Assembly: GCA_051294905.1 (NCBI GenBank)
Contig: CM119371.1
Span: forward strand, 20,462,001-20,526,000
Direction of reading: 5' to 3'
From: Botryllus schlosseri
Taxonomy: Eukaryota
DNA length: 64,000 nt
The stretch's first letter is position 1. Each line of letters begins with the position of its first letter. This document shows, piece after piece, positions 1,758-63,125 of the stretch. The notes beneath the pieces are model-generated. The model saw nothing but the letters and a program-made list of their open reading frames with translations. It was not told the origin of the DNA and searched no databases. Made by a program: the position numbers and the translations under genes.

Positions 1758-2010
1758 ATCTCAACCAATTATGCTGAGCCCGTAATATAACACACGGAAC
1801 GAATCGGTAATCGTTTGAACTTTAATTTAATTTGATACCGCATCAAATTAAACGCGCATTGCCCCTTCAACATTGAAACATCGCGTCATCATATCTGATT
1901 GGTACACGTCAATGCGATATTTCAATGATATATGCTACAAGTATTGATCATCTGACAAATTAGGGTTCCTTATGGGTACGGTAATTAATAAATCAGTATG
2001 AATGAACTTG

Positions 2011-5000
2011 TCATTTCCGCCCCTCGCGATATTTTATCTCTCGGTCTAGCTGACACATCGCGCATGTCTGACAGCAGCAAAGCAGACAGCAGTCATCGCA
2101 AATAGACCCCTGCAACAGAATGAAATTGCTTTGTATGTGACTCAATAATTTTCGAATGAGCATTTTCAATGTTTCGTACCTGAATACCATGCTTCGCTCT
2201 GAATGCGGAACGCATTGCCAGGTGTCCGCCTGGGACACACCCATACTGATCCCCGCTGCAACCAATGCAATAGTTTTCCCCCATTCTGGTTGCAATGCAC
2301 CCGTAATAAAAGCAACGACAGAAGAATACGCACAGACCTGTGAAATACCCACGAGCTGTAAAATCGACCGATCACTTATATCCTCTGTTGTAAGAGCAGT
2401 TTCGTAATCCTGCATCGCTTCATGTAGGCCTACTTCAGATAGAACATATAGTTTCTCGGGTTCGTTGATTGTCGAGGAAAGTTATTAGCTTCATTTACTT
2501 TGGATAGCAAGTTTTCTCTGATATCATATTCCGTAACGTATTTTGTGTTTCATTTCGCTTTATACCAGTGGTCGGGAACCTTTTTCGTCCGAAGAGCCAT
2601 ATTGGCCCATTTTATTCATTTTAACTCTCAAAGAGCCATACATGTCAATCAAAGAGTCATACATGTCAATCAACTTCTATGTCACATTTGAAAATTCGTG
2701 ACGTCACGGTACCACTTTAACTCACAACATGGGATTCGTCGTGTGCACCTCCTTTTCTTCGTAAAAACTAGCACTAATCATGCTTGTAGCCTAATTCGAG
2801 CATGAGACAACGCATGATCAGATGCGTAAGTGGAGCCAAGCATGATCACTGCAGCAGTATATACCCAATGTAAGGTGTGCTGATGCATCAGTGACATGGG
2901 GTCCGGGGAGGCAAGCGAGGCAGTTTGTCACCTGCTACTAGGATGAGTGAACGAAAGTTGTGAAAATCTCAATTGCTATTGGTATTTTCTATGGATGTTC
3001 ATCTATGACTTAATTTTGAACATTTTCCTCCCAAAATTAGGCGATTTGCATATTCATTATTCGAAAATACAGCCCGAAGCGAGCGGTAAGACACATTACC
3101 GGCCAAACTTCGCCATTGATAGCGCAATTCATCGTAAATAGCTTAAAATTTATACCAACTGATATGAATTGAATATAGCTGTGGCACTGATTCCGCAAAT
3201 CGAAATACTGATCGAATTCTCAATTCTCAAAGTATTCGGAAGGAACATAACGTTACGCTACATGCCTACATTTTATCGCTGTTGTAAGAAAGCGACTTAC
3301 CAATCAAGAACGTGGATAGCGATGGCGTTGTTTGTAATTGTGAATGTCACATCCATGGCAGTTCATTTCGTGCCATAGATCAAAAAGACGTATATGATAA
3401 CTTCGTTGTCATATGGCCATCGCCATGTCTGCTATTCTCTTTGATAAATCAACGTATCGTGCAATCCAAGATTTCGAGTCGGATACATCGAATTCGCGAG
3501 TGATATTGGTCGCCGGAACGACAGCAACTTCAATTTGGGGATTTTCAAAAGGCCTGTCTGGACCCCTAACCCTGAAGACGGCGTTGTCTTTACTACCTTT
3601 CAAAGACATGTTTATACCCTCACAAGAATAATTATTTTGGTCGTGATGAAACTTTACAAACAAATAGGGCTGGGCAAAATCGAGTACCTGAGTGATTCGA
3701 TTCTGAATCACGTAATATGCTTCGAGTCTAGTCGAGTAATCGAGTATCACTCGCCTTATGACGTCATAGCAGAATGCGATACGTTAAAGATCAAATTTGT
3801 ACCGTTTATGCCACAACAAAGAATGCAATGCCTTTTATTCCTCTCATAAAAGATACTTTGCTATTTTTTCGACCATACCGATTTCATTCCACTTGGTGAT
3901 AACGTTTTGGGATAATCATGACTTCGGAAATGTGTTGCGTCCAGTAACTTTCGTAGCTTTGTAATAATGTTTCGTATGCTACGATACCGCCAATCAAGGT
4001 TTGAAGGCTTTACCAGTGGAACGTAGTAACGAAACTATAATTCTCGTTGATAAATTACCTATCAGTGGCGAGAAGCGTATAATGCCAGTACTCGAAAAAA
4101 TAGTATTTTACTACTCGACTCGAATCATTAAAATTAATACTCGATTCAGATTCGAGTACTCGAATAATTGTGCCCAGCCCTACTGACAAATTTTTGCAAT
4201 ATTGATCAATTTAGTAAAAAAATAAATCTTTGGCAAAGAGCCATATCTTATACCCAAAAGAGCCATATATGGCTCGCGAGCCATAAGTCCCCGATCGCTG
4301 ATTTATATCTTACGCCTGTAGAGACTCATTACCGTAGAAATGAAGGAAATACAGAATATAGTTACGTATTCGGTATAGTGTTACACACATTATACATTTT
4401 TGTCAAATCACATTTGTTACCACGGTTGTGCATAATATTGGTATATTCATTTATTCATTTTATTCTGTTCTACGGTGTCCATACAGCACCGTTTTTCGAC
4501 GACAGTTTTATTCGTGATGTTTATGACGATTGAAACTGAGTATGGAGCGTGGAGCTATCAGTAACTTTTTTCTTTGTTTTTTGTTGAATTCCACTGGATG
4601 CTTTCACCATGAGGAAGAAAGGGAGTAATTACAAATTGCAATTCCAGTGATCCCGATCAAAGATGTTGAGATTACTGTAACATTATGCTATTCCATTAAT
4701 ATTTTCGCGGTGTAGGATATTCCAAGTGTTTTTTGCGAGCAAGAGCCTCATAAACTTTCCAATCTGGTGTACCAATGTCAAAATCACAAAGGAGACATGA
4801 GGAACACACGCTCCGCCTAAACATGGGCATGCTTACACGATGGAATGTCATCACAGCAGTCACATATGTTGCTGCTCCAGATTTCCATTGTGGGACGTTG
4901 GTTCATAACCGTCACATGTTGCGGCATCATCATTGCGGGCTGCTGTGTATACACCGTGGGTTGCTGCTGTGTATACACTGTGGGTTGCTGCTGTGTATAC

Positions 5001-8000
5001 ATCGTGGGTTGCTGCGTCACCACCACCCCAGGGCTATCCAGAGTTGGATATTCTTTTAGATCATAAGTCTGAAATCGAATAAAGATACCATCAGACGTAT
5101 TCCACAAGGACATCAATGACTGGAATAAAATACGGATTAACCATTGGGTATTTTTAGGAGCCGACCGATTCAAATTACTTAGCTTTTAAATGCGCTTTAA
5201 GGATATTCACCACCGAATTAAAATAAGCGGTAAAAGTCCCATTAAGCATGGTTTACCAGTGGAATCAGAACAATTTTCTCATTACCAATTAGAGGGTTCC
5301 GAGTTTGGTATCCGAAATTGCGCTCAGTTTTGCATATCGCTAATGTAATAGAAGCTTCTATTTTGTACTCAAACCAGACTTGCCTGCGATCAACTCTACG
5401 TGACTAAATAAGATCTTTATTACTAGGAATAGCACACTATTACCGGGCTTAAACCAGTCATGTCAGTTGCAATGCGATACCGATATCAGAAGGTAAAAAG
5501 TACCAGTTCTCAACGCTTACTGACAAAACTTGTGGAACACTTACGCTGACCTGCAAGTCTTCTCAGCACCCAAAATTTTTCGCTGTGTCACGGAATAAAA
5601 AAACTACCGCAATACCGCATACATATAGTTACTATAAGTTAGTGGTGCACAATATTCGCAGTGCATTAACGGAGTATCAAAAAAGCGAATTCAACAAAAC
5701 ACACTTTTCAAACAAAACCAAAACCTCATGGCGATTATTCATCGCGAATCAGACGTGATTTATGCTGTTAGCTTTCAGATGGCAGTTCGAAAAGGCAGGG
5801 TTTGTTTCACCTTTGAGATGATCATAGCATTGTTCGGTGGAAATTCAAAAGAGCGATGCCTATTCCTCATTTACAAATGAACGGCGCATCCGAGTAAGCG
5901 GTGTCTTATAAAAGCCAGGAATTGAATAGTATATTCATATTAAAATGAACCCGAATATTTTCGGCTGACAATCGTCAGGGGTAATCGTCAGCAACTAGTA
6001 GAGAATTCGAAAGAACAGCGTATATCAACAATCGTAACACAAAATATGACGTCACCAGCACGAAATGTCGAATACGAGAGCGTTCAATGTACTATTTTTA
6101 GATGATACACGAAGTCTTTTTGTTGACACAGCCTTGGCTGGTGTTTTTTGATAAAAGTCGACTCCAAGGCGCACAAATGAAAGTGTGAGCGACCCTTTCC
6201 GAGTATGCGAAATCTGTCGTCTCGATAATTTTTCGCACAGGCGGGATTATCCAACAAGTGTTTGCCAATTGCAGAATTTATGGCCTTTGATTGGTCCGCA
6301 TCAATCTTGAGCGGGTGAGTTAAGGGTGAGCTTTACATCGAGCGTGTTCTAATGAATCTAGGGACATGCTGATTTATGCGTTCCTGCAAGCGCTTTGACG
6401 TTCTTCCCACGTAGCCACAATCACAGTGGCACTTAAATTCGTAAACTACATTGCTTTGCTGAAGTGCGGGTAGCACGTCTTTACGTGTTGCGGGGAGCAG
6501 TTGCGTTGTCGTGAAAATCACGTTGGTCTTCACTGTGTCGTTGGTCTTCACTGTGTCTTCACGACAACGCAACTGCTCCCCGCAACACGTAAAGACGTGC
6601 TACCCGCACTTCAGCAAAGCAATGTAGTTTACGAATTTAAGTGCCACTGTGATTGTGGCTACGTGGGAAGAACGTCAAAGCGCTTGCAGGAACGCATAAA
6701 TCAGCATATCCCTAGATTCATTAGAACACGCTCGATGAAAAGCTCACCCTTAACTCACCCGCTCAAGATTGATGCGGACCAATCAAAGGCCATAAATTCT
6801 GCAATTGGCAAACACTTGTTGGATAATCCCGCCTGTGCGAAAAATTATCGAGACGACAGATTTCGCATACTCGGAAAGGGTCGCTCACACTTTCATTTGT
6901 GCGCCTTGGAGTCGACTTTTATCAAAATACACCAGCCAAGGCTGTGTCAACAAAAAGAGTTCGTGTATCATCTAAAAATAGTACATTGAACGCTCTCGTA
7001 TTCGACATTTCGTGCTGGTGACGTCATATTTTGTGTTACGATTGTTGATATACGCTGTTCTTTCGAATTCTCTACTAGTTGCTGACGATTACCCCTGACG
7101 AGTGTCAGCCGAAAATATTCGGGTTCATTTTAATATGAATATACTATTCAATTGTATATTGAAGTTCTGTAACTCAAAGAAGCTGTTCAAAAGCCAGGAA
7201 GTGGACAGTGCTACAAGTCGGCAGTAACTGAATAAAAACGAAGAAAAGTGGTCCATGTGTAAATGACAACATGCAACGGTATAGTCAACAAATACCCTGA
7301 CTACCCCAATCAAACATACAAGAATGGCCTAGACTAGGCTTACCATATTCTGGAAATCTAAAAAGAGGACACATTTTCAGGAATTTGAGACTTGCAAAAC
7401 CGGAGAACAATTCTCAAAAATGGGTGAATTTTTCCCACTTTGTCATCGGTTAACTAAAAAACAAGGTCAACTTTCGCTCGGAGTTCAAAATATCGTTTTT
7501 CTCTCCACATTGCTAGGTGGTTGACTAAAAAAAAGGTCAACTTTTCGCTCAAAGCTCAAACCACCGTCTCTCACTCCGAAATACCCGCCGGAGCGTCACT
7601 TCTGTGTACGGCATATCACTCGCATTTTGCTCTAAATGTGCCCTAAATTTTCAAAGAAGAGGACAAAATCTCAAAAAAGAGGACAAAAGGCCGTCCTCCG
7701 AGGACACTTTCAAAAAAGTCAAAAAAGAGGACAAACCCTCTTAAAAGAGGACGAATGGTAACCCTAGCCTAGACGGGCGTATCGCTACGAATCATACGTA
7801 TATATTGTACAGTGGTCCCTAATCTTTACGAACCCGCGGAACACTTACGATAATCTTCAGACCTTCGCGGATCCCCAAATTTACCACAATACACATTTAC
7901 CTACACATCTGATCTACAATACTATAGATTACAGTGTGTGGCATAGGGTGTTAAACGAGTTCAACCATTAAAATATATTTTAAAAACATATAAAAATGAA

Positions 8001-9383: not shown

Positions 9384-12378
9384 CTGTATTCAGTCTAAAT
9401 ACCAGTTGTTCTATGCTGCTAATTAAGCAATATCGTCAAAAATGAAAAAAATAGACCACGCCTCAACAGAAGATATTACAGAAAACCATGGTGCAGTTCC
9501 TACGCTCAATTCTTAAAGATTCCAAAATAAATGGAATCGTAGAATGAGAACCGTCTATTTTTCCCGGTCGCTTCACATAGGCGGTACTGTCAGGTAGACA
9601 CGTCAGCTCTGCCACCCATACTGATTGGCGTAAATGAGTCGCATACAATCGCATGTATGAAGACATACACAACTAAACTGATTTCCAGTGGCAATGTCCT
9701 AATTCTGCATGACGCCTGCATTTATCTTCGAGTATCGAGGAATCAAAGTCCTACTTGTTATATATACTACGAGATGTAATAGTTGGTCATGAAATGATTA
9801 TCGACATCATGTCCGGCAGAATTCAATGGAAATTATCTAGCTTCACTACCGAACTGAGATTATTATATTGGAAGTTTATTTCACGCTGATACGTGAGCCC
9901 GCACCTTACTAAAGATGGGTCATAACATACAACTGCGGCCTCATAAATTGGATAGTGGAGTTGTCTGACGCATTCCAATCCTACGTACGTCGTAAACCCC
10001 TGTATTACAATGCGGCAACAATGGCTGACGGTGGCGGTTTCCAAGAACTATTCGTTTCATTGTGATGCTCACAAATATGTGCAATGTAAATATGCAGTAA
10101 AATATCATGGTCAAAGATGTGGAAGAACTCTTGACTACCTGGTTTTTCGGTGACAAAAATAGAAACCCTCAATATAATTGTATCGGGTTGTTAACTTGAT
10201 GTTGCTGAAGCATCTTTTAGAAGCGAAAGGTTTGTGAGTTTTTTTTTACAATAAATTATGCCCGAGATTCCAGACATGAATGCATTGTTGATCTGCTAAG
10301 GGTATAACCAAACGGCCTAGAAGAAGTTTTCTATATTGGCTGATAATGGACTTCGGTTGACGAACAAATTCGCAAGCCGGATAGCGGTACAACCGGGTGG
10401 TGTCAATATCGAGCATTGAACTCACTTTCTCGTAGTTCACGTATTTGGCATTACGCAGGAGAATTTTTCACCGAGGTATAGTAGGTTATATGCAAACTAC
10501 TCCCACTTCTTTCAACTGGCACCCTGCCAAATTATTAGGCTTAAAAAATCCGTTTCATCTTCAGTAGCAATCTTCGATATTCAGAGTCAAAGAGTAGTTG
10601 GCTATAAAACACATTGCTATCACTTCATAGGATTTCTATTTCGAGATGATGATTGGTAACAAACTTGAATGTTGTTGTGAAAATGATAGGCTACAACTAC
10701 AATCAGGATGTGGCGCACGCGACTGACCTTATTATGCACGTGACATACGACTCTCCATAGCATACGGGCGCTATCCATTTGTGCACGTAGCTACTGTCCA
10801 TACTGTAATAACCGTTCATGTTGAAACATCATCAGATTTAGGATCTTGATCCGTAATTGGATGTAGAATTCCAATGTTGACACGAGAAAGTAAATATGAC
10901 ATTTTTAAAAGTAAAGGATTTTTTAAAGATTTTACTCTTACTTAAGATGGTAAGTAACACTGTAATTCGAAATCTAGCAAAATATTCGTATTTGTGAGAG
11001 CAATGACGGTATTTTCACGAATCGAATGTCATTATTATGCAGGTGACTGTCCCTACTGTGCAGTCAATCGCACTAAACCTCGGTGTCGGAATAAGATCAG
11101 TATACTTCGGCATGAAATTTTTATATTAGTTTACTTGTCCCTGCACGAGGGATATATTGTAAACCAGTGGTTTGCAAAGTATGCGCCAGCGCCCCCTTGG
11201 GGCGTTCGCCAGCGTGAAGCGAGCTCTGGCCATGAAATGGGTGATCAGGGTCGCTAGATATAACATTGGTCGGTAGGGATCGCTGAGTGCAAATCGGGCA
11301 ACAAATAGGTTTGGAATGCAACTGCTGCGTAGTTTTGAAAGGATTGATCAACAGAGCAGCTGAATACCCAGTGAAAATGTAAATAGATCCAGTCAGGGCA
11401 ATGTAAGATCACCCGTCTATCAGCTGTACCGCAAAGTCCATTGGTATATGACAATGTTAATCTTGTCATCAATGGACTAATTCAGCAGTCAGCAGAATTA
11501 CTAAAATTCGTGGTTCATCCTGTGCCGTGAGAACTACGAAGTAATTAAACAATTATTTCTCACTGTAAGGTGTGATGGCTTTTTTCAGAGAAAATGTCTT
11601 GCGGGATTTTAATCTCTGTGTCAAACGATCGTGTATTTTACGCAGTGCTGCTACCGTTGCATCCGAGACACGGAGTTCAGGTTGTGAGAAACGATATCGC
11701 TTCCACTTGACGGGCATATTTACCAAAATTTATGAGTAGGAAATATATATTCTTAGTAATGACGAAACTTAATAAAAGTGAAAATGTCACGGTCTGGATT
11801 CAATAATAAGCCTGTGATATTTCACCGTTAGCTTGCATGAGCTAAACCGGTCCTACTCGAAAATCCGATTTTGATGAAGAAACATTATTAAATCATCGCA
11901 GAAAATTACACGAGCATATGGGGATTATATAACAGAATATATGTCCCAATTAGAATTTCCTCGCCGGATAATCAATTCATTGTGTACAGTTTCCGATCAT
12001 GAAATGATTGAAGAGCTGATTGTTTCCTGATTTGGAACAATTTAGAGTTCAACCCAAAGTGTCAATATGTCCAATCAGCGTTTTGGATATGCCATTGAAT
12101 CAAATTGAAATTCTGTGACTGGAGTCGGGTTAACTTTTCTCTCGTTGACGGTCTGCGCTCAATGTTTGAGAGAACGTGTTTTCAGAGTCATAACAAAGTT
12201 CCTGAATCACAGCAGATATAGCGTCGGTTGAACCTCCCTCAAAATTAATATGACAGTGTTGAACGTGAAGTCTGCAAATCTTAGAATGAGAATGTTCTTA
12301 TCAAAACAAAAACCAAATATGACAAGGATTATGATATTAATACACCACCTTAATCATTATTAGCTGTAATAAATGCGC

Positions 12379-16026: not shown

Positions 16027-19000
16027 TCATTGACGTCCCTCGCGATAGTTTATCTCCCGATCTAGCTGACACATTGTACAAGGCTGACAGAAGAAAAGTA
16101 GGCAGCAGTCATCGCAAATAGATCCCTGAAACGAAAAAAATAGATATTTCGTTTTATGCGACTAAAGAACTTTTTACGGGGTGTATCCATAGTGACGCAC
16201 CTGAATTCCATGTTTGGCTCGGAATGAGGCGCGCATAGCCAGGTGACCGCCCGGAACACACCCAGATGGGTCTCCACTGCATCCGACGCAACAGTCCTCT
16301 CCCATTCTCTTTGCGATGCACCCGTAATAAAAACAACGGCAGAAATATACGCATAAACCTGTTAATATTTGTGCGGCTTTATAGATTCGATCAAAATATA
16401 ATAGCGACTATGTTGTGGTGACTGCATACGGTTAATCGATTGACGGTATATCGCCCCGTCTTACATATGCAATAGGCCAGTAGTTCTCAACCTTCTTTTA
16501 GACACATGATAATTATGACTGTTGATGAGAGAATTCAAAATATGAAATTCGGTCTATTCAGAGAATAACACAGAATCACGCTTGAATTGGAGGTAAATCG
16601 CGCGGAGCGAATTTTTTTTTCTGTTGATCACTTCTTCGCGCCGCCATACAGATGCTTTGACGCTTGAAAATACTCAATAAATTTCAATTTTGTCACACTT
16701 TAGGTAGGTTTATCAGCTGCCATGCTTTGGAAGATCTACTATTACGTTGCATTACCTGTTCATTACAATAAATGAAAATTGTGATTTTGGATCATGCGCG
16801 ATTGTTCGTAGAATTGCACGAACTCGGACTGACCGGGTGATAAAATGAAAATGACTCAAGTTACGTCGGTTCAAACTTTAAAATAAGAGAAGGAGTTGCG
16901 ACAGGAAACGTGGTGGGTTGGTAAACAAACTATCAAACAGACAAACTCATGAGAAATAGTAACTCATAAAAAGGTACGGGCTTTGCGTAGCGTTGCGGAT
17001 TTCGCTATCTGAGAAAGTAGTAATAGCAACCATTGTCAGTATGTTGCCTCCATGATGCATAGTTAATTACATCATGGGTTAATTCAGCCATGTTAGTATC
17101 GCCAATTAAAGTAGACGAGTAACAAAGTGTTACAACTATATATTTTAGGGATTGGACATGTTTCAAATAGAGTGTCTTAAAACACCGCTTGTTATAAATG
17201 CAACCTTACTTACACGACGGAATATCATCAAAGCAAGCCCATATGCTACTGCTCCAGTCTGCCATTCCAGGCTGGTTCACAACTGCTGCATCTTGCTGCA
17301 TAACCACACCCTGCTGATAAGTAACCATGGTTGGTTCCTGTTTAACTACCGTATCATCATCCAGCATTGGCTGTAGCGTCTAAAATTCAATAAAGTCAAT
17401 TAACCATTCAATCACATTTTCTGAAGAAATCGTGGTCTGCCTTCAAGTATGATTGGACTGTGGTACTAGTTGTTTACTACCGTGCAGACCAGGGCTATTC
17501 CATAATTTATCTTGTTTAAAGATTGTTAATACAGACTTGAAATACTTCGAAAGTCAGAATTCGCAGGATGTTTTATAGGACTTGAGGATACATAGAAATA
17601 CCATTTGTTTCTCTATACTCAGGAAGTTCATTATGAACTCTGCCCATAGCCATTACACTATACGCCAGACCTCGAAAACGTATTCCTTTTAGGATCCTGA
17701 ACCAGATTTAATAAACCAGAAAAAAGGGACCGAAGGAATTCTAAATCAAATGTAAATGAACTAAATTTTGATCTCTGAGCTTTTAACAACTTCTAAACAC
17801 GTGTCTCTATAAACATCTAATATTTCTCGAACCTTTTGAGCGCGATAGAAATCCGAGTGTTATTATTATCTTGCAAACCAAGCCTGTCACATGGAATGCA
17901 ATGCATCTAAGGTTATAAAGAACATTTCCATGCCCTGTGAAGTGTGAACATTGGATAAACATACGATACCTATAGTTCTTGAAAGCATGATTCATTACAA
18001 AAAATCATTGATTCTGTGTGGTTGTTATGACGGAAATTTATTTTTCATAGATTTAAAGCAAGGCGCTTTTGTATTCGGCTATTCGCTTACACCGATTATC
18101 GCCTTCAATCGATCGTCTCCAGCCGTTGTGTAGCAGGGTTGTAATGACTCGAGTCACGATTTTTTTGTGATTCGACTTGACTCGAGTCATTTTCTTGAAA
18201 TTTGAAAATGATTCGACTCGAGTCAATATTTGAATTGACTCGACTTGTACTGGAGTCATTACGCATGACTCGATTCAAGTCATTGACTCGGCTTATTTTT
18301 ACATGACTTGAAGATTAAGAAATTTACGAATCGTAATGGCTAAATCAACGCCTCTGACGAATTCTGCCGATATCGCTATTTGTTACCTCTGCTTCATTTG
18401 CACTCGTCTGATTTCATATATGCCGCCGTAAAAACCACAGACAATGTTAAATAGTAGCAGTGCATTGTACAAAATCCTCCAGTGATGAAGAGGTAATAGA
18501 TCCTCCGCAATCAGAGTACTCAAGACTTTTCAATTATGCTCGCAAACAATCGATGCAAAGTTCAATTAAAGTCAATGAAATGACTCAGATGGTGAAGTAG
18601 GCTACTTGGAAGAGACTGATAAGCTCATGTGTAGATTTGAAGGCGATGATTCTTTGCATTTTTGGGCGACTAGAAAGAATAGGTATCCAATGCTCTTCAG
18701 TGAGGTTAAATATGCTTGTCTATTCCTGCATCCAGTGCACCAGTGGAACGTGTATTCAGTAGATGTGGATTAATTCTAAGGCCATACCGCTTTAATGTGT
18801 CTAAGGATCTACTCTCCACTTTGGCATTTTTGAAGTGTAAATCATTGATTTGATCTGCTGTCTGTCAAAACACACAATACCCTCCGTCCATTTGATGTTT
18901 TGTTACGTATGTGCATTGTGCACGTGAGTAATAATGAATGGCTAATGTTGTGTGATGTTTGTACAATGGGGCTGTTCAAAAATAACTTATTTTTATTTTA

Positions 19001-21023
19001 CTGGGTGGCTACTTGATAAAATCGTTATGTTGCATAAAACGAACACTGAATCTCGCTTAATTTAAAACAGTAGAATCAATGATATGAGAGGATCAAATTT
19101 TGGATTTGAAAATCAATGGAGCATTTTTAGTGAGAAATTCTTTCATAAATATAATTACATACTAGTAGTAAGCCAACTATTTTTTCATATCCAAAATATT
19201 CCACTCTTATAACTTCGCTTATTCTAGTTGGAATTGAACCAAATTTGCTGTGAATCATATTTTTACGCAATCTCACAATATCATGAAATAGCCGGTTAAA
19301 TTCGAAAATCTCTATTTGTAATCATCAAAAATTATCTCTCATAGCATTGCTTTCGAGTGGTTGGCATTGAGCTAAATTTGAGTTCTTTTAGGCAATCTAA
19401 CAATTATAAGAATTAGCCGGACAGTTGAAAAAATGTTTCTGAACAGCCTCAATGTACAATTATTTCTCCAATGATGTAACCGCGATGTAGTCTGTAATGC
19501 AATCGGGAAAACCTTTAGTAATATCAACAGGTATATCTTCTTTTGTCACTGCACATTGCTGCATGCACGCTTTTGCGGCATTCTGACCTGGTGAAAATAT
19601 AGCGTTACCATACGTCCTCCTTTAGCAGAATTTGTCCTTCGAGGACGTCTAAATGTCATCCTTTTTTAGATTGTGTCCTCTTTTTTGAGAATTATTGTTA
19701 AATGTAGGGCAAATTCGACGAAGATACAGTAAAATAGCACTGAAGTAACGCTCCGGTGGCTATTTCGGGAGCTGAGCAGGAAAGTTGACCTTTTTTAAGT
19801 CAACCATCTGATAATGTGAAAGAAAACTGTGCCTCTACATTAACATGAATCTGTTGATTCTCTATCAGCTGGTATCTAGACGTGAATTCGTTGGTTCTCT
19901 ATCAGATAGTATGTAGACGTGGATTCGTTGGTTCTCTATGAGCTATTTGTGAGTTGTCGTCGATGTGCTCGTAATAAAAACTGAATGCTTGTATTTGTGA
20001 TGTATAAGACTGACAAGATAGATATTTGATTTAAAGTTCTAAAATTTGTAAAGTTATCATATTGGCTGCGTGTCTCGTCCATTAGCATCGGTAAATGAGG
20101 CCAGGAACTGTCCGTTATATTCCTAAATAAACCTGCTGTGCCAAGACTCTGATAGGGACAAAATAAGTATGTTTGGCAGGCAAGGAATTCGATATCACCC
20201 ATAAGCAGGATTGAAAACAAAAGTGAAAAACAATACTGTGACTTGGAATCGGACTCGAGTCATAACACTATGACGCGGACTTGACCCTTTAAACGGTGAC
20301 TTGGACTCGGACTCGACTCGGTGATGTATTGAAAATGACTCGACTTGACTCGAGTCAAAACCACAAAAGTAAGATTGACTCGTGACTCGGAACCATGTCA
20401 CTTGGTTACAACCCTGTTGTGTAGTCATAACTGCTTACACGCAATTTAAGCTCATGACTCCTGAACTTCCAATTTGAATGTTCACCCCTATTTCACACTA
20501 ATGACAAGATAATTGGCAAACGTTAGTGTGATAACCGTGGTTTATCCTGAGCAAATCAGAGACCATCTGGCTCTTCTTATTCTACAATACCAGCTTATTA
20601 TCTTACAGCATTATGGAGAATCCACATGTCAGACAAATCTTACAATGATATATAACCCTTTTAGATCAGGCAGGTGCATTCATTATGATTGAGCAATATA
20701 TTCGCGACAACTTTGTGGGCGCGTCAGTCATTATCATCTTAACTGTGAATGCAGACTTGGTAATGGTGAAAGCATCGAAACAAATATTACAATCATCAAA
20801 CGACAGTGGACTTTCATTTGGAACAAACGTAGGCCTAATTTGATTGGGATTCGATTAATAACTTGATTTTATTTGCATTCGATAAAATAGTGTTGGTAGT
20901 ACGTTTAATTAATTCTGTGAATTCTAAGTATTTGAAATATATATTGAAGAGGGCTTGGTACAAAACGATTTTGTAAGTTGATAATTTCGTAATATATTAA
21001 ATAGTCTATTTACTCACATTCAT
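16027..21023 (-). CDS. PLAC8/cornifelin-family cysteine-rich protein, paralog 2 (142 aa). Exons 21018-21023, 17214-17379, 16201-16358, 16027-16125
   Basis: Spliced product MN|TLQPMLDDDTVVKQEPTMVTYQQGVVMQQ...WSSSIWACFDDIPSC|LCVYFCRCFYYGCIAKRMGEDCCVGC...AMRASFRAKHGIQ|GSICDDCCLLFFCQPCTMCQLDREINYREGRQ*. Exons 3 and 4 have the same lengths as in paralog 1 (158, 99 bp) and canonical splice sites. The first exon ATGAAT|gtgagt is inferred by analogy with paralog 1. Confidence 0.87.
18134..20416 (+). mobile_element. Internally deleted hAT transposon (TIR CAGGGTTGTAA) with transposase C-terminal remnant
   Basis: 8-bp TSD TTGTGTAG (18126-18133, 20417-20424) and GACTCGAGTC-rich subterminal arrays. 18648-18853 translates, with a frameshift, to DSLHFW...RYPML...LSIPASSAPVERVFSRCGLILRPYR...LAFLKCK, the hAT dimerization domain. 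Confidence 0.92.
19858..19944 (+). repeat. 37-bp tandem repeat (about 2.4 units)
   Basis: ttctctatcag...tagacgtg.attcgttgg units start at 19858, 19895 and 19932. Confidence 0.8.
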
Positions 21024-28614: not shown

Positions 28615-29559
28615 TCACTCCGTATTATCCACGTGAATTTTGATGTGTTTTTTCATATTTGATTTTACATTGAATGCTTTCCCACATATTTTGCAATGGT
28701 AATTCACTGCCGCATGAACGGAATAGTGTTGTTTCAGGTGAGACTTTCTCATGAAGCGTTTCCTGCATATATCGCATTCATACTTGCTCTCTTTTAAGTG
28801 GATCATCTTCGCGTGTACCTTAACGTACGACTTCGAGCGAAATGTTTTACCGCAAATGTCGCACTGATGCTGGTTTTCTCCCGTGTGAATCAGGCAGTGA
28901 TATGTTAGATGAGATTTTTGACCGAAACTTTTTCCGCATATATCACACTCGTGTGCTTTTACTCCAAAATGAATTAAATAATGTGTTTTCAAATGACTTT
29001 TAGTAGTGAAGTCTTTTCCGCATATATGACACACATATTGTTTCGCTCTGGTGTGAATCATATAATGCCTTTTCAATTCACTTTCCCGTCCAAACCCCTT
29101 TCCGCATATACTGCAGTCATAATATTTCATTCCGGTATGAAACAGATAATGGGTCTTCAAATTGGTGTTTGTAACGAAAGCCTTACCGCATACTTCGCAT
29201 TTATAGTCTTTGATTCCCATGTGTGTAGCATAATGATTTGTAAGTTGAAACTTTCGCGAAAAGGTTTTCGCACATACATTGCACTCAAACTCTTTCAGTG
29301 CGGCGTGGATTTTCATGTGCGTTCTCATGTCAAATTTCTTGATGAAAGGTTTCCCGCATATGTCGCACTCGAACTCTTTAATTCCGGTATGAATTTTCAA
29401 ATGGACTTTCATGGCATGCTTCCGGGTGAATGCCATTCCGCAGACCTCACAAATATGTTCACTGCCCTCGTCAAGATGTCCCGAATTGACACTGTCCTTC
29501 CTCACTATGCAAGGAGACTTCGATTCTATGACTTTCATCTGATTCAATACGCCAGCCAT
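28615..29559 (-). CDS. Tandem C2H2 zinc-finger protein (10 fingers, 314 aa ORF), no recognisable effector domain
   Basis: Ten canonical CxxC-x12-Hx3-4H fingers with TG(I/M/E)K-type linkers. The frame stays open upstream to a candidate acceptor (ttgcag at about 29609), so an upstream exon is possible. Confidence 0.9.
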   Translation of the reverse strand: MAGVLNQMKVIESKSPCIVRKDSVNSGHLDEGSEHICEVCGMAFTRKHAMKVHLKIHTGIKEFECDICGKPFIKKFDMRTHMKIHAALKEFECNVCAKTFSRKFQLTNHYATHMGIKDYKCEVCGKAFVTNTNLKTHYLFHTGMKYYDCSICGKGFGRESELKRHYMIHTRAKQYVCHICGKDFTTKSHLKTHYLIHFGVKAHECDICGKSFGQKSHLTYHCLIHTGENQHQCDICGKTFRSKSYVKVHAKMIHLKESKYECDICRKRFMRKSHLKQHYSVHAAVNYHCKICGKAFNVKSNMKKHIKIHVDNTE

Positions 29560-30474
29560 TCTTTGAATATCGTCGCGTTTACTTTTGCCCTTAATATATA
29601 GTTCAGTACTGCAATCTCAAAAGATGACCGGAAGATTACATCTTTATATATCACAGAGGATCGCAATGTAAAATATTACACAGTCATGGGAGGTCGAATT
29701 TGTTATTTCGGGCTGAATTATAGGTAGAATTATTCCAGTACGTTTCTGGTCAATTTCATGTAGAATTTTTCGAGCATGCCCAAACTAAGTGAAGTAGACT
29801 TGAAGTAGTATGTGAAGTAGTATTCAAAAGTATTCAAGTATAAGCACATTTAAGAAAGTAACACTAACATCAAGGAGTAACGTGAGTATCGTAGGTATGT
29901 AAAGTCAGATCATAGCAAATCTCAAGAAAGCGAGTCGTCAGTCAAGTATTGGTACATCACGACCATAATATCTGATCACCTACCTATTTGCTTCAAGCCC
30001 GGCACCACCGTCGATTAACATCCTTGGTTAGTTATATCATTAATAATATTACTATAAACACTACCGCCTGATGAAAAATCTATAGCTTAGGGTTATTAAC
30101 CATACCGATCAAATCCCATTTTGCGAGGCTTTTCGAACTACCTCCCAATTGATATCTGGTATGAATGTTTGACACCGCATAAAATTCATTCGGAATGACT
30201 ACCGATATGCATGTGAAGTCATAGACACATCATATGAGCATGATCCCATATTCCCTGGTGATATGCGGACGTGCACACAACATGACGAATTCTCGATGTC
30301 AGATCTCAGCCAATACTATGTATCAGCCAAATATTGTATATACCTATGCACAATGTTGCGTGTCATTCAGCGCTGTGAATTTAGAGTGATAGTACGTTCA
30401 GGAATATACATGAATGACTAAAATCAATACATGTCAATATCGCTGCCAAATATTTTGATGCTGGTCATATACAC

Positions 30475-30967: not shown

Positions 30968-31238
30968 AGTGGCGAGATAGCGCAGTGGTATAATCCGCGG
31001 CTGCAACACCAATTGGTGTGGGTTCGAGTCCGACCGAGGTCGACTTTCGAATTCCGATGGAGGTTTACCTAGGCTCCTCCTCGCCACCTCATCCGCGTCA
31101 GCGGTGTCTTACAAAAGCCTAGAGGTGGGCCGTCCTATAAGTCGGCAGTTACGGAAAATATGAAGAATATCGGCCTGGTGTAAATGACCATAGCAGTCGA
31201 CAAACACCATGAATACCCCAAAACAACCAAACAAACAA
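30968..31238 (+). mobile_element. Full-length tRNA-derived SINE with (CAAA)n tail
   Basis: A box TAGCGCAGTGG (30978-30988), B box GGTTCGAGTCC (31021-31031), (CAAA)n tail and a 13-bp TSD ACAAAGCGAAAGA (30955-30967, 31239-31251). Confidence 0.88.
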
Positions 31239-37651: not shown

Positions 37652-38797
37652 CTACTGTCGGTATTTCATTTTCGTATGGGCGGAATAGTGTCTTATAAGG
37701 GTAGACTTTTTCGTGAAGCCCTTTCCACATATCTCGCACTCATATTCATTTGTTTTTAGGTGTACCGCCGCCATGTGTGATTTAATGTACGATCTCAAAC
37801 GAAACGCTTTACCGCAAATTTCACACCTATGTTCCTTCTCTCCGGTGTGAACCGAATAGTGGGCTTTGAGTAGGTATTGAGTACTGAATCCTCTTCCGCA
37901 GACATGACAAACAAAATTTTTCGCGCCAGTGTGGGTCAAATGATGTTTTCTTAAATTGACCTTTCCTGCGAAATCTTTCCCGCAGATACGGCAATAGTAA
38001 TCCTTCGTCCCGGCGTGATTCAAATAATGACGTTCAAGTTGAGCATTTTGTCGGAAACGTCTTCCGCATATACGACACTCATGATTTTTGGCTAGTGCAT
38101 GAATCAACGAGTGTGTTTTCAAATTACTCTTTAAAACGAACCCTCTCCCGCATATCGAACATACGTGATCTTTCAAACCGCCGTGAATCACATAATGGTG
38201 GTTCAATTGACCTTTTCGTCCGAAACCTTTCCCGCATATATCACACTCGTAATTCGTTGATCCGACATGCATAAAATAATGTGTTTTCAAATGACTCTTA
38301 GCTGTGAAACCTTTACCACATATATCGCACTCGAACTCTTTATATCTGTCGTAACGTTTCATGTGGCTTCGCATCTCGCATATAGTGGTGAATCGTTTCG
38401 CACATACATCGCATCTGAACTCTTTAAATCTGTCGTGACGTTTCATGTGGTTTTTCATCTCGTATATAGTGGTGAATCGTTTCGCACATACATCGCACTC
38501 GAACTCTTTCAATCCGAGGTGAACTTTCATGTGTGTTTTCAAATTTGATTTCCTGATAAATACTTTCCCACATATATCGCAATCGTGGTTTTTCATTTCC
38601 TTCCGGAATGAATGATGAGATAATGGGGCACAACTTCTCACAAATCTTTTTCCGCATATGTCACCATCAAGCTCCTTGGCTCCGGTGTGAATTTTCATAT
38701 GGACTATCATGTAAGACTTGCTCTTGAAGCATTTTCCACAGACCTCGCAAACATTGCCATTGCAGCCTTGACGATGTTGAAAATGGGGCTGCATCAT
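37652..38797 (-). CDS. Tandem C2H2 zinc-finger protein (13 finger positions, 11 canonical; 381 aa)
   Basis: Intact ORF of C2H2 repeats with HTGAK/HTGEK linkers. Finger 2 and finger 5 lack zinc ligands. An in-frame TGA lies shortly upstream of the ATG. Confidence 0.88.
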   Translation of the reverse strand: MMQPHFQHRQGCNGNVCEVCGKCFKSKSYMIVHMKIHTGAKELDGDICGKRFVRSCAPLSHHSFRKEMKNHDCDICGKVFIRKSNLKTHMKVHLGLKEFECDVCAKRFTTIYEMKNHMKRHDRFKEFRCDVCAKRFTTICEMRSHMKRYDRYKEFECDICGKGFTAKSHLKTHYFMHVGSTNYECDICGKGFGRKGQLNHHYVIHGGLKDHVCSICGRGFVLKSNLKTHSLIHALAKNHECRICGRRFRQNAQLERHYLNHAGTKDYYCRICGKDFAGKVNLRKHHLTHTGAKNFVCHVCGRGFSTQYLLKAHYSVHTGEKEHRCEICGKAFRLRSYIKSHMAAVHLKTNEYECEICGKGFTKKSTLIRHYSAHTKMKYRQ

Positions 38798-38936
38798 TTT
38801 TAACTCGGTAGGAATACTTTGTTGCGGGGACGCTCCTGCGATTCAATGCAGAACCTCTCCTTCAATGTACACAACTAATATCGCGAATAATATGGTTTTA
38901 TGCTGCGTGTTAAAATCTAAAAAATATAACTGCATG

Positions 38937-47851: not shown

Positions 47852-48912
47852 TTACTGTCGGTATTTCCTTTGCGTGTGGACGGAATAGTGACTTATGAGA
47901 TGAGACGTTTTCGTAAACCCCTTTACGCATATCTCGCACTCGTATTCCTTTGTTTTCAGGTGTACCGTCTTCATGTGTAATTTAAGGTACGATCTTAAAC
48001 GAAATGCTTTACCGCAAATGTCACACTCATGTTCCTTCTCTCCGGTGTGAATCGAATAGTGGTCTCTAAATAGGCATTGTTTACCGAAACTCTTTCCGCA
48101 TACATGACACACATAATCTTTCGCGCCCGTGTGGATCGAATGATGTTTTTTCAAATCACCCTTTGCTACGAAATCCTTTCCGCAGACATGATATCCGTAA
48201 TCCTTCGTCCCGGCGTGAATGAAATAATGACGTTTCATGTCAGCATTGTGTCGAAAACGTTTTCGGTATACATGGCATTCGTGATCTTTGGCTAATGTAT
48301 GAATCAACGAGTGTGTTTTCAAATTACTCTTTAAAACGAAACCTCTCCCGCATATCGAACATATGTGATCTTTCACGCCAGCGTGAATCACATAATGGTA
48401 GTTCAATTGCCCTTTTCGTCCGAAACCTTTCCCGCATATATCACTCTCGTAATTCGTTAATCCGGCATGCTTAAAATAATGTGTTTTCAAATAAGCCTTT
48501 GCTATGAAACCTTTACCACATATATCGCACATGAACTCTTTAAATCTGTCGTGACGTTTCATGTGGTTTTCATCTCGTGTTCGGTGATGAATCGTTGGGC
48601 ACATACACCGCACTCAAACTCGTTCGAGCCGAGATGTCTTTTCATGTGTGCTTTCAAATTTGATTTCTTGGTAAATAGTTTTCCACATATATCCCACTTG
48701 TGGTTTTTCATATTCTTATGGCATGAAGTATGAAATAATTGGGTACTCCTTTGCAAAAATCTTTTTCTGCATATGTCGCACTCAAACTCCTTAGCTCCGG
48801 TATGAATATTCATATGGACTTTTATGCAAGACGTGGTCTTGAAGCATTTTCCACAGACCTCGCAGACATTACCATTGCTGCCTTCGATATGTTGAAAATG
48901 GGGCTCCATCAT
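47852..48912 (-). pseudogene. Frameshifted paralog of the 37652-38797 zinc-finger gene (12 finger positions)
   Basis: Two overlapping ORFs (48559-48912, 47852-48613) are separated by a 1-bp deletion (T4 at 48567-48570 vs T5 at 38451-38455 in the paralog). Four fingers have also lost a Cys ligand (C->W, C->S, C->Y, C->Y). Confidence 0.8.
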
Positions 48913-58700: not shown

Positions 58701-58914
58701 AAGATGGCACTTGTTCATGCCACAGAAAGCTGAACAACAAACGAGAAAACTGAAATTGAAAATAATTATTGCTGAATTATAGACATTCGATGAAATTTGG
58801 GATAATCCAAAAAGCAAAATATAATACAGAATTGCAGATCAGTCCAGAAAAGGTAGATTGTAATGCAGGAAGCATAGTTTATCTGCATAATCACCCAGTT
58901 AAACTCGTCCTGCA

Positions 58915-60090
58915 ATGGTAAATCTGTACACTCGAACATTGGGGCTAATTTGGGATGTTAAGAATGATTGTTTCAGATTCAACATCAAATTGTCCGATCG
59001 TGCGGTGAGCAGGCGTTCAATCTTATCCTTCGTCAACTCCGTATATGATCCGTTGGGTTTCATATCGCCAGCGGTGCTGGAAGGGAAACTCATTCTGCAA
59101 TTTCTTTGCAAAGCTGGGACGGACTGGGATGATGAAGTACCAGACGAGCTGAAGCACCGATGGGTTGCGTGGTGTTCAACGTTATCATCGATCGAGTCTT
59201 TGCGCATTGACCGCTATTTCAAGCCGCCGAGTTTTGGTAAGATCGTGCTTGTTGAATATCATCATTTTTCGGACAGCAGCTCGTATGCTTATGGTAAATG
59301 CTCTTACGTACGCTTGATTAACGAAAGACGAAATGCCCATGTTTCGTTGGTAATCGGCAAGGCCAGAGTTGCCCCTCTGAAGCGACAGGTATCTATTCCG
59401 CGTTTGGAGTTGAATGCTGCTGTTGTTTCTGCTCGGATGAGTAAGTTCCTGAGAAATGAATTGAAGTTCGAAACGGTGAACAAGTATTTCTGGGTTGATA
59501 GCATGGTTGTCTTGTGCTATATCATGACCTCACCGAACCTAGCTCGTGGCATCATATCAGCTCGGCGATGAACCCCAGCGACGATGCGAGTCGTTTCATC
59601 GATGGAAAGACCTCACAGATGATTGTCGTTGGCTGAAAGGTCCCGAATTTTTGTGGAAATCAGGACCATTTGTTGTTGCTAGTGATCACGACTATACGAC
59701 AACCGAACGAGATGCATTGGAAGTTGATGCTGAACTGCGAAAAGCGACTGCGTTTCAGGTCAAAACGGACGTGGAAGTTAGTGGTCTCCAATTCATCGAC
59801 ATTAAACTGTTGGAGTCCATTCCGAAATGGAAAAGAACGGTGAAAGCGGTAGCGAACTGCCTCAGGTACATGAACATATTGAGAAACAACCCTACACTTT
59901 GTCCAGCGAGTTAATGATGATTTCTGAAAAAAATAATTATCCGTTCTCTCCAGAGAGAAGTGTTTTCACAGGAGATCAATGCCCTAAAAGAACATGGCGC
60001 TGAAAGTCGTTCGGCTGGAAAGAAACCAACAGGTGGAAGTTTGGCAAGCTTGAATCCGTTCTTCGACGCTGACGGGATACTACGTCGGTA
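58915..60090 (+). mobile_element. BEL/Pao LTR-retrotransposon pol fragment (RT end / RNase H, Peptidase_A17 region), degraded
   Basis: RTLGLIWD...SVYDPLGFISP...WDD...HHFSDSSSYAYG...GKARVAPLK..SIPRLEL.AA...FWVDSMVVL, then RWLKGPEFLW and LNPFFDADGILR across deletions and frameshifts. No LTRs seen. Confidence 0.92.
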
Positions 60091-61902: not shown

Positions 61903-62211
61903 TAGGGCTATCATATTTTGGAAACGAGAAAGGAGAACACTTTTCAAACTTTTCAAAGGGAATTTTTTTCCACTTCGTGGTCGGTTGACTATAAAAAGGT
62001 CAACTTTCCACTCAGCTCCCGAAATACCCGTCTGAGCGTCAATTCGGTGCTGATTTGCGGCATCTCAGTCTAATTTTGCTATGAATTTGACCAAAATTTC
62101 GCAAAAATATGACAAAATCTCAAAGAGGATGACATTTAGGCGTCCTCGGAGGACATTTTCAAAAACCCGAAAAAGGATGACAAATCCTCTTAAAGGAGTA
62201 CGGTAACCCTA
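61903..62211. mobile_element. hAT MITE, copy of the 7335-7766 family (another partial inverted copy at about 19599-19830)
   Basis: Similar termini and body; TSD TGTTAAAT/TGTTAATT. Confidence 0.8.
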
Positions 62212-63125
62212 TGTTAATTGAGACTTCAAAATATAAAAGGAGACGCATGAAACATTAAATATTCATTCTACATGAATTGTAGCAACCACTCAAACTTTGA
62301 AATACAACGTCGGCATATTTTGCGAAGCGACAAAAATTGGGATATTTGACGAAGTCCCTACAAAAGTAAACTTTGACGAAACACCAGGAATATATATATA
62401 TAACTATAGTTCTATAGTAGGCGTATACAACTTTGTATTCCTATTGGTTATCAAAGGAATACAGAGTTGTATACGCCTACTATACAACTAACCCCCTTGC
62501 AATTGCAAATCGCCCCCAGGGGCGCTGGCGACTTGGTTTAAGAAACCATTGGTCGAAACACGTCGTCATTTTGGTTTATGATCAATATTATTACACCGTT
62601 GTCATGCGGTCGGCTTGCTTAGAAGCTTTGAAACATTATATTTCAACATCGGTGTGGAATGTTAATGCATCAACAGAATAAATAAAACGATATTGGCAGA
62701 ACCTGTCCGTGATGACATTTCTTGTTTGCTGGTTGGGTCCATATTTTGCGGTTGCTGTTGCAAGTCTGGGCTCGGGGTTACTTAAACACGATGTGATACA
62801 TCGACCTCGCCTACCGATACATGCCACCTCATTTCTATCGCTTGTCTTTTTATCTCATTATCTATTACTCTATTCTTAAATCAGTGTGCAAGGTCCTTAT
62901 TCTCATCGTCTCTAGTCCCATATGCGTGTCTGATTTCAAAGACTACTCCAAATCGTTTCGACACCACCACATCTTTTCATTGTATCGCAATCCTGTGGTG
63001 CTCTGATCTGATGAAGTTATTAATAGACGGAAACTGTCTGAAACGGATTACCTATTTTTGGCAATTTACGTTCCAATTTACCTACAGCTGTATGCTATAC
63101 AGCTGCGATGCTATAATATTCGGCT

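Follow-up and report, generated by a model that had tools for sequence, protein, structure and literature searches.

The palindrome at positions 5910-7200 of the 64,000-nt stretch of Botryllus schlosseri DNA analyzed here (contig CM119371.1; hereafter the window) is almost certainly one recent insertion of an abundant, endonuclease-bearing Penelope-like element (PLE), in head-to-head inverted form and with no known host function. We lean toward an origin by priming on both target strands, followed by snap-back of one long cDNA.

Results

Anatomy of the palindrome and of its target site

Self-comparison delimited two arms of 596 nt each, at 5920-6515 and 6558-7153, which are 99% complementary and have 42 nt between them. 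They mismatch at exactly five places (5971/7102, 6114/6959, 6145/6928, 6335/6738 and 6365/6708), which confirms the arms and the approximate mismatch count reported in the first-pass annotation of this DNA. The arms lie head to head, with their truncated 5' ends meeting in the middle of the palindrome and their 3' ends pointing outward. The 35-nt tail previously noticed on one arm is likewise present, at 7154-7188 (plus strand), and belongs to the right arm only.

The insertion is bracketed by a 12-bp direct repeat (5910-5921 and 7189-7200, plus strand), for which we estimate a chance probability of roughly 1e-4 and which had been interpreted as a target site duplication (TSD). After deletion of the insertion and of one TSD copy, the flanks were colinear with 31090-31234 (116 of 157 positions identical, E 9e-20); the alignment scored 88.7 bits with one TSD copy versus 62.6 bits, with a 12-nt gap, when both were retained. 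The proposal that the flanks rejoin into one SINE, whose relative carries the site once, thus holds. The left SINE piece (5887-5921, plus strand) is 5'-truncated, includes the first TSD copy and is identical to 31090-31119 at 27 of 30 positions, and the right piece (7189-7321, plus strand) is 72% identical to 31112-31234. The interrupted SINE corresponds to the 3' half of its relative only (131-275 in a comparison over 291 nt). That SINE-like relative is full-length and has a 13-bp TSD of its own (30955 and 31239), an A box at 30978, a B box at 31021 and a CAAA-repeat 3' end, a combination of A/B boxes, simple-repeat 3' end and TSD that defines tRNA-derived SINEs; ARAGORN called no tRNA. At the relative's site, 9 of the 12 TSD bases are matched, as judged by eye.

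The ends of the insertion had been described as exact. We found them slightly fuzzy: the last 2 nt of the left TSD copy and the first 3-4 nt of the right one fit both the target and the element. The true lengths of the arms are about 617 nt (left) and 631 nt (right), the 'spacer' being no separate sequence. The left arm (5922-6538, sense on the minus strand) is a 5'-truncated PLE 3' end devoid of the tail.

The arms derive from a Penelope-like element

The coding part of the right arm (6558-6989, plus strand) consists of the last 143 codons and the stop of a PLE open reading frame. These codons match the GIY-YIG endonuclease family PF01541 with an E-value of 3.7e-4 and 21.2 bits, just under the curated cut-off of 22.6, and the corresponding peptide has 34 homologues among 128 candidates. 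The best of them, P0001, is 63% identical over 100% of the query. It is an 841-residue protein combining RVT_1 with a C-terminal GIY-YIG domain; the arm fragment matches its residues 697-841, and the reverse transcriptase (RT) has been truncated away in the insertion.

Downstream of the stop, a pseudo-LTR (6990-7153, plus strand) re-enters the start of the ORF at its 3' end: it ends 6 codons after an ATG at 7135, and the frame extends to 18-19 codons when the tail is included. Residues 1-19 from this ATG align to residues 1-19 of P0001 with 10 of 19 identical, and they match the N-termini of P0001, P0011 and P0018 with E-values of 0.005-0.05 in a search against 34 proteins. The family is settled as PLE by two features absent from the first-pass annotation: the 3' end re-enters the ORF start, and a type I hammerhead is present (see below). 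Our locus displays the hallmarks of PLEs with a C-terminal endonuclease, namely a C-terminal GIY-YIG domain, a pseudo-LTR with the ORF start and a tail of 30-40 nt, together with an inverted 5'-truncated arrangement with a short TSD and, by sequence and structure, a minimal type I hammerhead in the pseudo-LTR. The original reading of a young Penelope-like insertion that integrated once is therefore upheld, endonuclease homology, pseudo-LTR, hammerhead, tail and single TSD being in agreement.

Neither tblastn nor self-comparison revealed other copies or a full-length parent of the element elsewhere in the 64-kb window, and an exact 28-nt pattern gave 0 matches in metagenome contigs. A protein scan yielded three relatives (L001, L002 and L003) among 239 candidate stretches. 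An inverted element copy was found at none of the three, of which only L002 is a fair test (the L003 contig starts inside the ORF and the L001 contig inside the RT).

A minimal hammerhead in the pseudo-LTR

A minimal type I hammerhead at 7081-7124 (plus strand) is the only match of our descriptor on both strands of the window, 0.07 being expected per shuffled window. The hammerhead proper spans 7091-7124, with a 4-bp stem I, an intact core, a 1-bp stem II and a palindromic helix III. In the derived structure, loop II pairs over 6 bp with 7081-7086, the strand 5' of stem I, and cleavage is predicted after 7120. The descriptor matches two of the three related loci, the third (L002) carrying U in place of C as its first core base. 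Hammerheads whose stem II is 1 bp long and whose loop II forms a 6-bp pseudoknot could be placed at 1269-1321 in L001, 4611-4662 in L002 and 558-609 in L003, as at 7081-7124 in the window. In a five-row alignment, 64 of 65 cells pair and 7 of the 13 pairs change on both sides, the rows amounting to about three independent lineages (two are the arms and two are close relatives). Five of the seven two-sided changes fall in the 6-bp pseudoknot helix, where they affect 5 of its 6 pairs. These counts lean toward the structure, because the latter was derived from the same sequences. The Rfam scan missed the hammerhead. It also returned two sub-threshold microRNA-like matches on the centre of the palindrome, which we took as chance.

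The left-arm copy lies on the strand of the neighbouring gene (5949-5992, minus strand). According to descriptor and alignment, its G10.1-C11.1 pair is broken by a change of G10.1 to T at 5971, a pair that is kept in all three relatives. We considered, and set aside, that an inactive hammerhead had been selected for on the strand of the host gene, since this is one post hoc change among five.

Abundance and age of the family

Three contig sets and one RNA run were aligned to 1900-6557, a region that includes the left arm only. In X1, summed depth reached about 845,000 on the 3' end of the element versus about 17 on unique DNA, and fell to 14,500 near the centre, these values being summed contig depth and not copy number. 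They show that the element family is very abundant and steeply 5'-truncated. At 500-630 nt from the 3' end, summed depth was 0.017, 0.040 and 0.029 of the 3'-end depth in the three runs. Records running past 5920 numbered 203, 171 and 217 contigs and 206 RNA reads, with a consensus agreement of 0.47-0.65. The tail (7154-7188) is native element sequence continuing the ORF start, because in all four runs the consensus beyond 5920 ends in the reverse complement of the tail.

Similarity to the copy in the window is 90-99% for most family pieces, and the two arms are 99.2% alike. Allelic divergence nearby amounts to 2.8%, 4.9% and 4.9% per run (24 pieces, among the matches listed), compared with 0.84% between the arms, so that the insertion probably postdates typical alleles; any conversion of one arm by the other could bias this estimate. 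The data thus suggest a young, probably unfixed allele. The sequenced runs come from other individuals, since they show homozygous differences from the window at 1934-2509.

All four coding differences between the arms are non-synonymous (p 0.37 under neutrality), and one of them creates a stop (6335, left arm). At least three of the five arm changes are derived on the left arm: the stop, an E-to-D replacement at a site where 21 of 28 aligned homologue residues are E, and G10.1. These differences are compatible with decay after insertion.

One haplotype each in X3 and X5 departs from the window at 5885, 2 nt before the SINE homology begins: the pieces align up to this position and continue with 123 and 176 letters unlike the window. 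This suggests haplotypes without the SINE piece or the insertion, and the presence of the truncated SINE may be polymorphic as well.

The centre of the palindrome

On the minus strand, the coding sequence of the left arm extends into the centre by 7 further codons, which score 12.0 against the matching columns of the 34 homologues. Only 2 of 5000 random peptides reach this score (a fraction of 0.0004), and the plus-strand reading scores 3.0. We relied on this column score because local-alignment extension was unspecific, plus-strand read-through being also extended in 22 of the 34 homologues. Native coding sequence therefore runs to about 6536-6538.

The remainder of the centre (6539-6557, plus strand) is non-native. 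It is made of an exact 18-nt tandem duplicate (6539-6556) of 6521-6538 and one additional base, and its junctions fit microhomology slips. For the first slip, a 6-nt match is available a short way upstream, 6507-6512 being identical to 6536-6541. At the last junction, a native 5-nt inverted pair identified by sequence comparison is used again, 6511-6515 with 6529-6533 (plus strand), which matches the fold-back junction; such a pair occurs at 18 of 578 arm positions, a background of about 3%. The snap-back pair does not belong to the predicted minimum-energy fold, and no stable hairpin was predicted for it, the folding of the region being no better than that of shuffled sequences (z -0.08 to -0.36). 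Such a pattern is left when a 3' end stalls and, after two realignments, primes on its own or an identical strand. Hence, of the 42-bp spacer annotated earlier, the 42-nt gap between the aligned arms stands, and its status as a separate sequence does not: it is 23 nt more of the left arm followed by the 18-nt slip-duplication, with a 5-nt fold-back microhomology.

The neighbouring PLAC8-family gene and a possible hairpin RNA

Three exons of a PLAC8-family gene lie on the minus strand next to the insertion. The first identified one (4837-5068) has an AG acceptor at its 5' side; the second (2180-2337) has AG/GT ends and RNA depth; the last coding exon (2011-2109) matches PF04749 with an E-value of 6.3e-5. 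Read in the order 5068-4837, 2337-2180 and 2109-2011, they form a single open spliced frame covered by RNA reads. A second PLAC8-family gene (16027-17379, minus strand) shows the same three-exon layout and AG acceptor, and its upstream exon was not found either.

The first-pass annotation placed the palindrome in intron 1 of this gene, PLAC8-1, and supposed that the pre-mRNA could fold into a hairpin. Exon 1, on which the first statement depends, was not found: a donor scan gave candidates at 5544, 7848, 9374, 10425, 12774 and 12969, and two inside the arm, none of them supported; the DNA upstream of the paralogue gave repeats only, among the matches listed; and a protein search with the first identified exon retained 0 of 11 candidates. 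RNA depth was zero in the unique intronic bins at 5176-5799 (one RNA run, about 6% of it sampled), a result that goes against the pre-mRNA hairpin. Given the AG acceptor and this zero depth, an upstream exon or a trans-spliced leader is likely, and probably does not lie between the gene and the insertion. A position in intron 1 is plausible.

One could imagine that the locus works as a source of hairpin RNA, host transcription through the insertion giving dsRNA that would be diced or edited and would silence the family in trans. The minus strand is indeed predicted to form a near-perfect duplex of -1164 kcal/mol, a trivial outcome for a repeat of this kind; the neighbouring gene is expressed, with its acceptor facing the insertion; and in transgenic Drosophila melanogaster Penelope siRNAs are reported to map to inverted regions (PMC3681739). 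We consider this role improbable at the locus, with exon 1 not located and RNA depth at zero over 5176-5799. Nor did we see an excess of editing, with A-to-G/T-to-C changes at 31 and 37 places versus G-to-A/C-to-T changes at 39 and 34, a comparison of little weight that other copies dominate. RNA reads on the arm stem mostly from such copies, 98% of the aligned reads running on into sequence unlike the window. In addition, the RNA donor may lack the insertion, and the low divergence between the arms suggests a young, probably unfixed allele. A silencing role would matter more if true, and finds no support at this locus.

Other features of the window

A non-autonomous DNA-transposon-like element at 7335-7766 has 14-bp imperfect terminal inverted repeats, an 8-bp TSD (7327-7334 and 7767-7774) and relatives at 19600-19826 and 61983-62211; we take it to be hAT-like from the length of its TSD. 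A MITE-like element of very high copy number, which has short terminal inverted repeats and is bordered by TA, occupies 3665-4182, in the next intron of the PLAC8-family gene. Three long ORFs on the minus strand (28615-29616, 37652-38842 and 47852-48613) contain tandem C2H2 zinc-finger-like repeats, recognized by eye, in duplicated blocks. Broken ORFs at 58903-59914 look similar to the RNase H part of BEL/Pao-type LTR retrotransposons, and self-comparison revealed an 84-nt imperfect palindrome (89%) at 62407-62490. On the strand opposite to the PLAC8-family genes, an ATG immediately followed by a consensus donor (10940-10956, plus strand) is preceded by a pyrimidine-rich acceptor-like stretch; it was noticed by eye and may be due to chance.

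Discussion

Formation of the inverted insertion

Both target strands must have been primed, at sites 35 nt apart: the left arm, which lacks the tail, could not have served as its template. We propose the following scheme. The GIY-YIG endonuclease would nick each strand, with a 12-nt stagger, and expose two 3' ends. That of the top strand would prime reverse transcription at an inner start site through a 2-nt match and yield a cDNA of about 617 nt, the left arm, and the bottom-strand end would prime at an outer start site 35 nt further 3', through a 3-4-nt match, and yield the tail. The long cDNA would then stall, slip back once, producing the 18-nt duplicate, and slip again, its end pairing with the 5-nt complement just upstream on its own strand. 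It would copy itself into the sense strand until it meets the tail-bearing cDNA, and the joint would be sealed, the five differences between the arms arising after insertion. This scheme builds on observations of the anatomy, of a tail and a stretch of the centre that are both native to the element, and of microhomologies at the junctions; from these we infer the order of the strands, the self-priming and the polymerase involved.

A snap-back is favoured over two long cDNAs because the arms end about 23 nt apart, in a region where family depth is 1.7-4% of that at the 3' end. The alternative is that two long cDNAs were made, one per target strand, by a dimeric enzyme copying either two RNAs or two repeats within a tandem RNA; microhomology between their 3' ends, with flap removal, would then have joined them. 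That both target ends must have primed, with the tail on one arm only, suits this idea equally, as do the extension of both strands and the predicted dimer described in PMC11167929 for another PLE. Moreover, the derived changes lean toward the left arm, and a decayed second template would have the same effect. However, the second cDNA would have to reach at least 631 nt, a length attained by few family matches (ratios of 0.017-0.040), and arms that are 99.2% alike in a family of 90-99% similarity would require templates from one source lineage. We consequently regard two long cDNAs as rather unlikely. Of the two cDNA syntheses in opposite orientation envisaged at the outset, the priming of both strands is retained and the two long independent cDNAs are not, the centre reading better as a snap-back. 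The evidence for the snap-back nevertheless comes from one locus, which cannot decide between the two: an identical sequence would result if a second cDNA, 631 nt long or more, had annealed at that 5-nt match.

One would also wonder whether the palindrome could be a fold-back artefact of assembly or library. Among the listed reads and contigs, which come from other individuals and cover the left arm, none bridges either junction or the centre, and both S1 and S2 differ from the window at homozygous sites. An artefact would be expected to mirror one flank or to lose it, and no such sign is present: both flanks are unique and unmirrored, and they rejoin into one SINE with the site once. Besides, the arms differ at five sites, one of them bears a native tail, and the layout is that of the published PLE pattern. 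An artefact is thus highly improbable.

Comparison with known systems

Published descriptions of PLEs give as typical features a short TSD, a one-sided tail of 30-40 nt and, beside the 5' end, a 5'-truncated copy in inverted orientation (PMC8557442, PMC3846280). Self-priming on an antisense template has been proposed for head-to-head junctions (PMC3846280), and such inverted repeats have been suggested to yield siRNA (PMC3681739). Both the head-to-head structure and the siRNA idea are therefore already in print for PLEs, and the structure reported here is an ordinary one.

The closest parallel is with Pen2/Pen2a of A. vaga, as described in PMC3846280, which share with our element the C-terminal GIY-YIG domain, the pseudo-LTR with the first ORF codons, the 30-40-nt tail at one end, the head-to-head inversion, the short TSD and the self-complementary junction. 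Unlike in Pen2/Pen2a, the Botryllus copies are cut at nearly the same point, which leaves no unique body and makes the whole insertion palindromic; its arms hold 430-450 nt of coding sequence and its junction has the 18-nt slip-duplication.

The Poseidon element PAc of Anolis carolinensis was reported to cut and extend both strands in vitro, with two start sites bounding the tail and a predicted dimer (PMC11167929). In the same way, the ends of the Botryllus insertion lie 35 nt apart in the ORF start, which fits two start sites, and both target strands appear to have been extended. The positions are different: in Botryllus, reverse transcription would start about 18 and 54-57 nt downstream of the ATG, which the predicted hammerhead cut precedes, whereas PAc is cut 26 nt after the ATG and initiates at 111-118 (PMC11167929). 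Inverted copies are left unexplained in the main text of that study.

With the minimal type I hammerheads of PLEs (PMC4209133), ours has in common the intact core, the G10.1-C11.1 pair, the short stem I and the palindromic helix III. The former have a helix II of 6-8 bp and, in the main text of that paper, no pseudoknot, whereas the Botryllus stem II is 1 bp long and its loop pairs 5' of stem I. For a type II ribozyme, a stem II of 1 bp combined with a 6-bp pseudoknot has been described, and pseudoknots are reported in all three types (PMC3088659).

A parallel can also be drawn with twin priming of LINE-1, in which both target ends prime, microhomology is found at the internal junction and the TSD is kept (PMC11702581). 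The LINE-1 arms, as described there, are adjacent and nearly non-overlapping parts of the RNA, whereas those of Botryllus overlap over 596 nt.

Implications

The locus offers a clean case for how PLEs form inverted repeats, its ends and centre being readable nearly base by base. A possible generalization, which we put forward tentatively, is that both strands prime at the start sites bounding the tail and that the 'antisense template' of PMC3846280 would be the first-strand cDNA itself, snapping back at native microhomology and serving as its own template. We found no paper spelling out a first-strand snap-back for PLE inverted copies in a literature search whose coverage of older PLE work is incomplete. 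If the snap-back is true, coincident truncation, a self-complementary junction and arms identical in source should be the rule across the family. In a genome harbouring a very large young family, the two models of inverted insertion could be separated by counting junctions.
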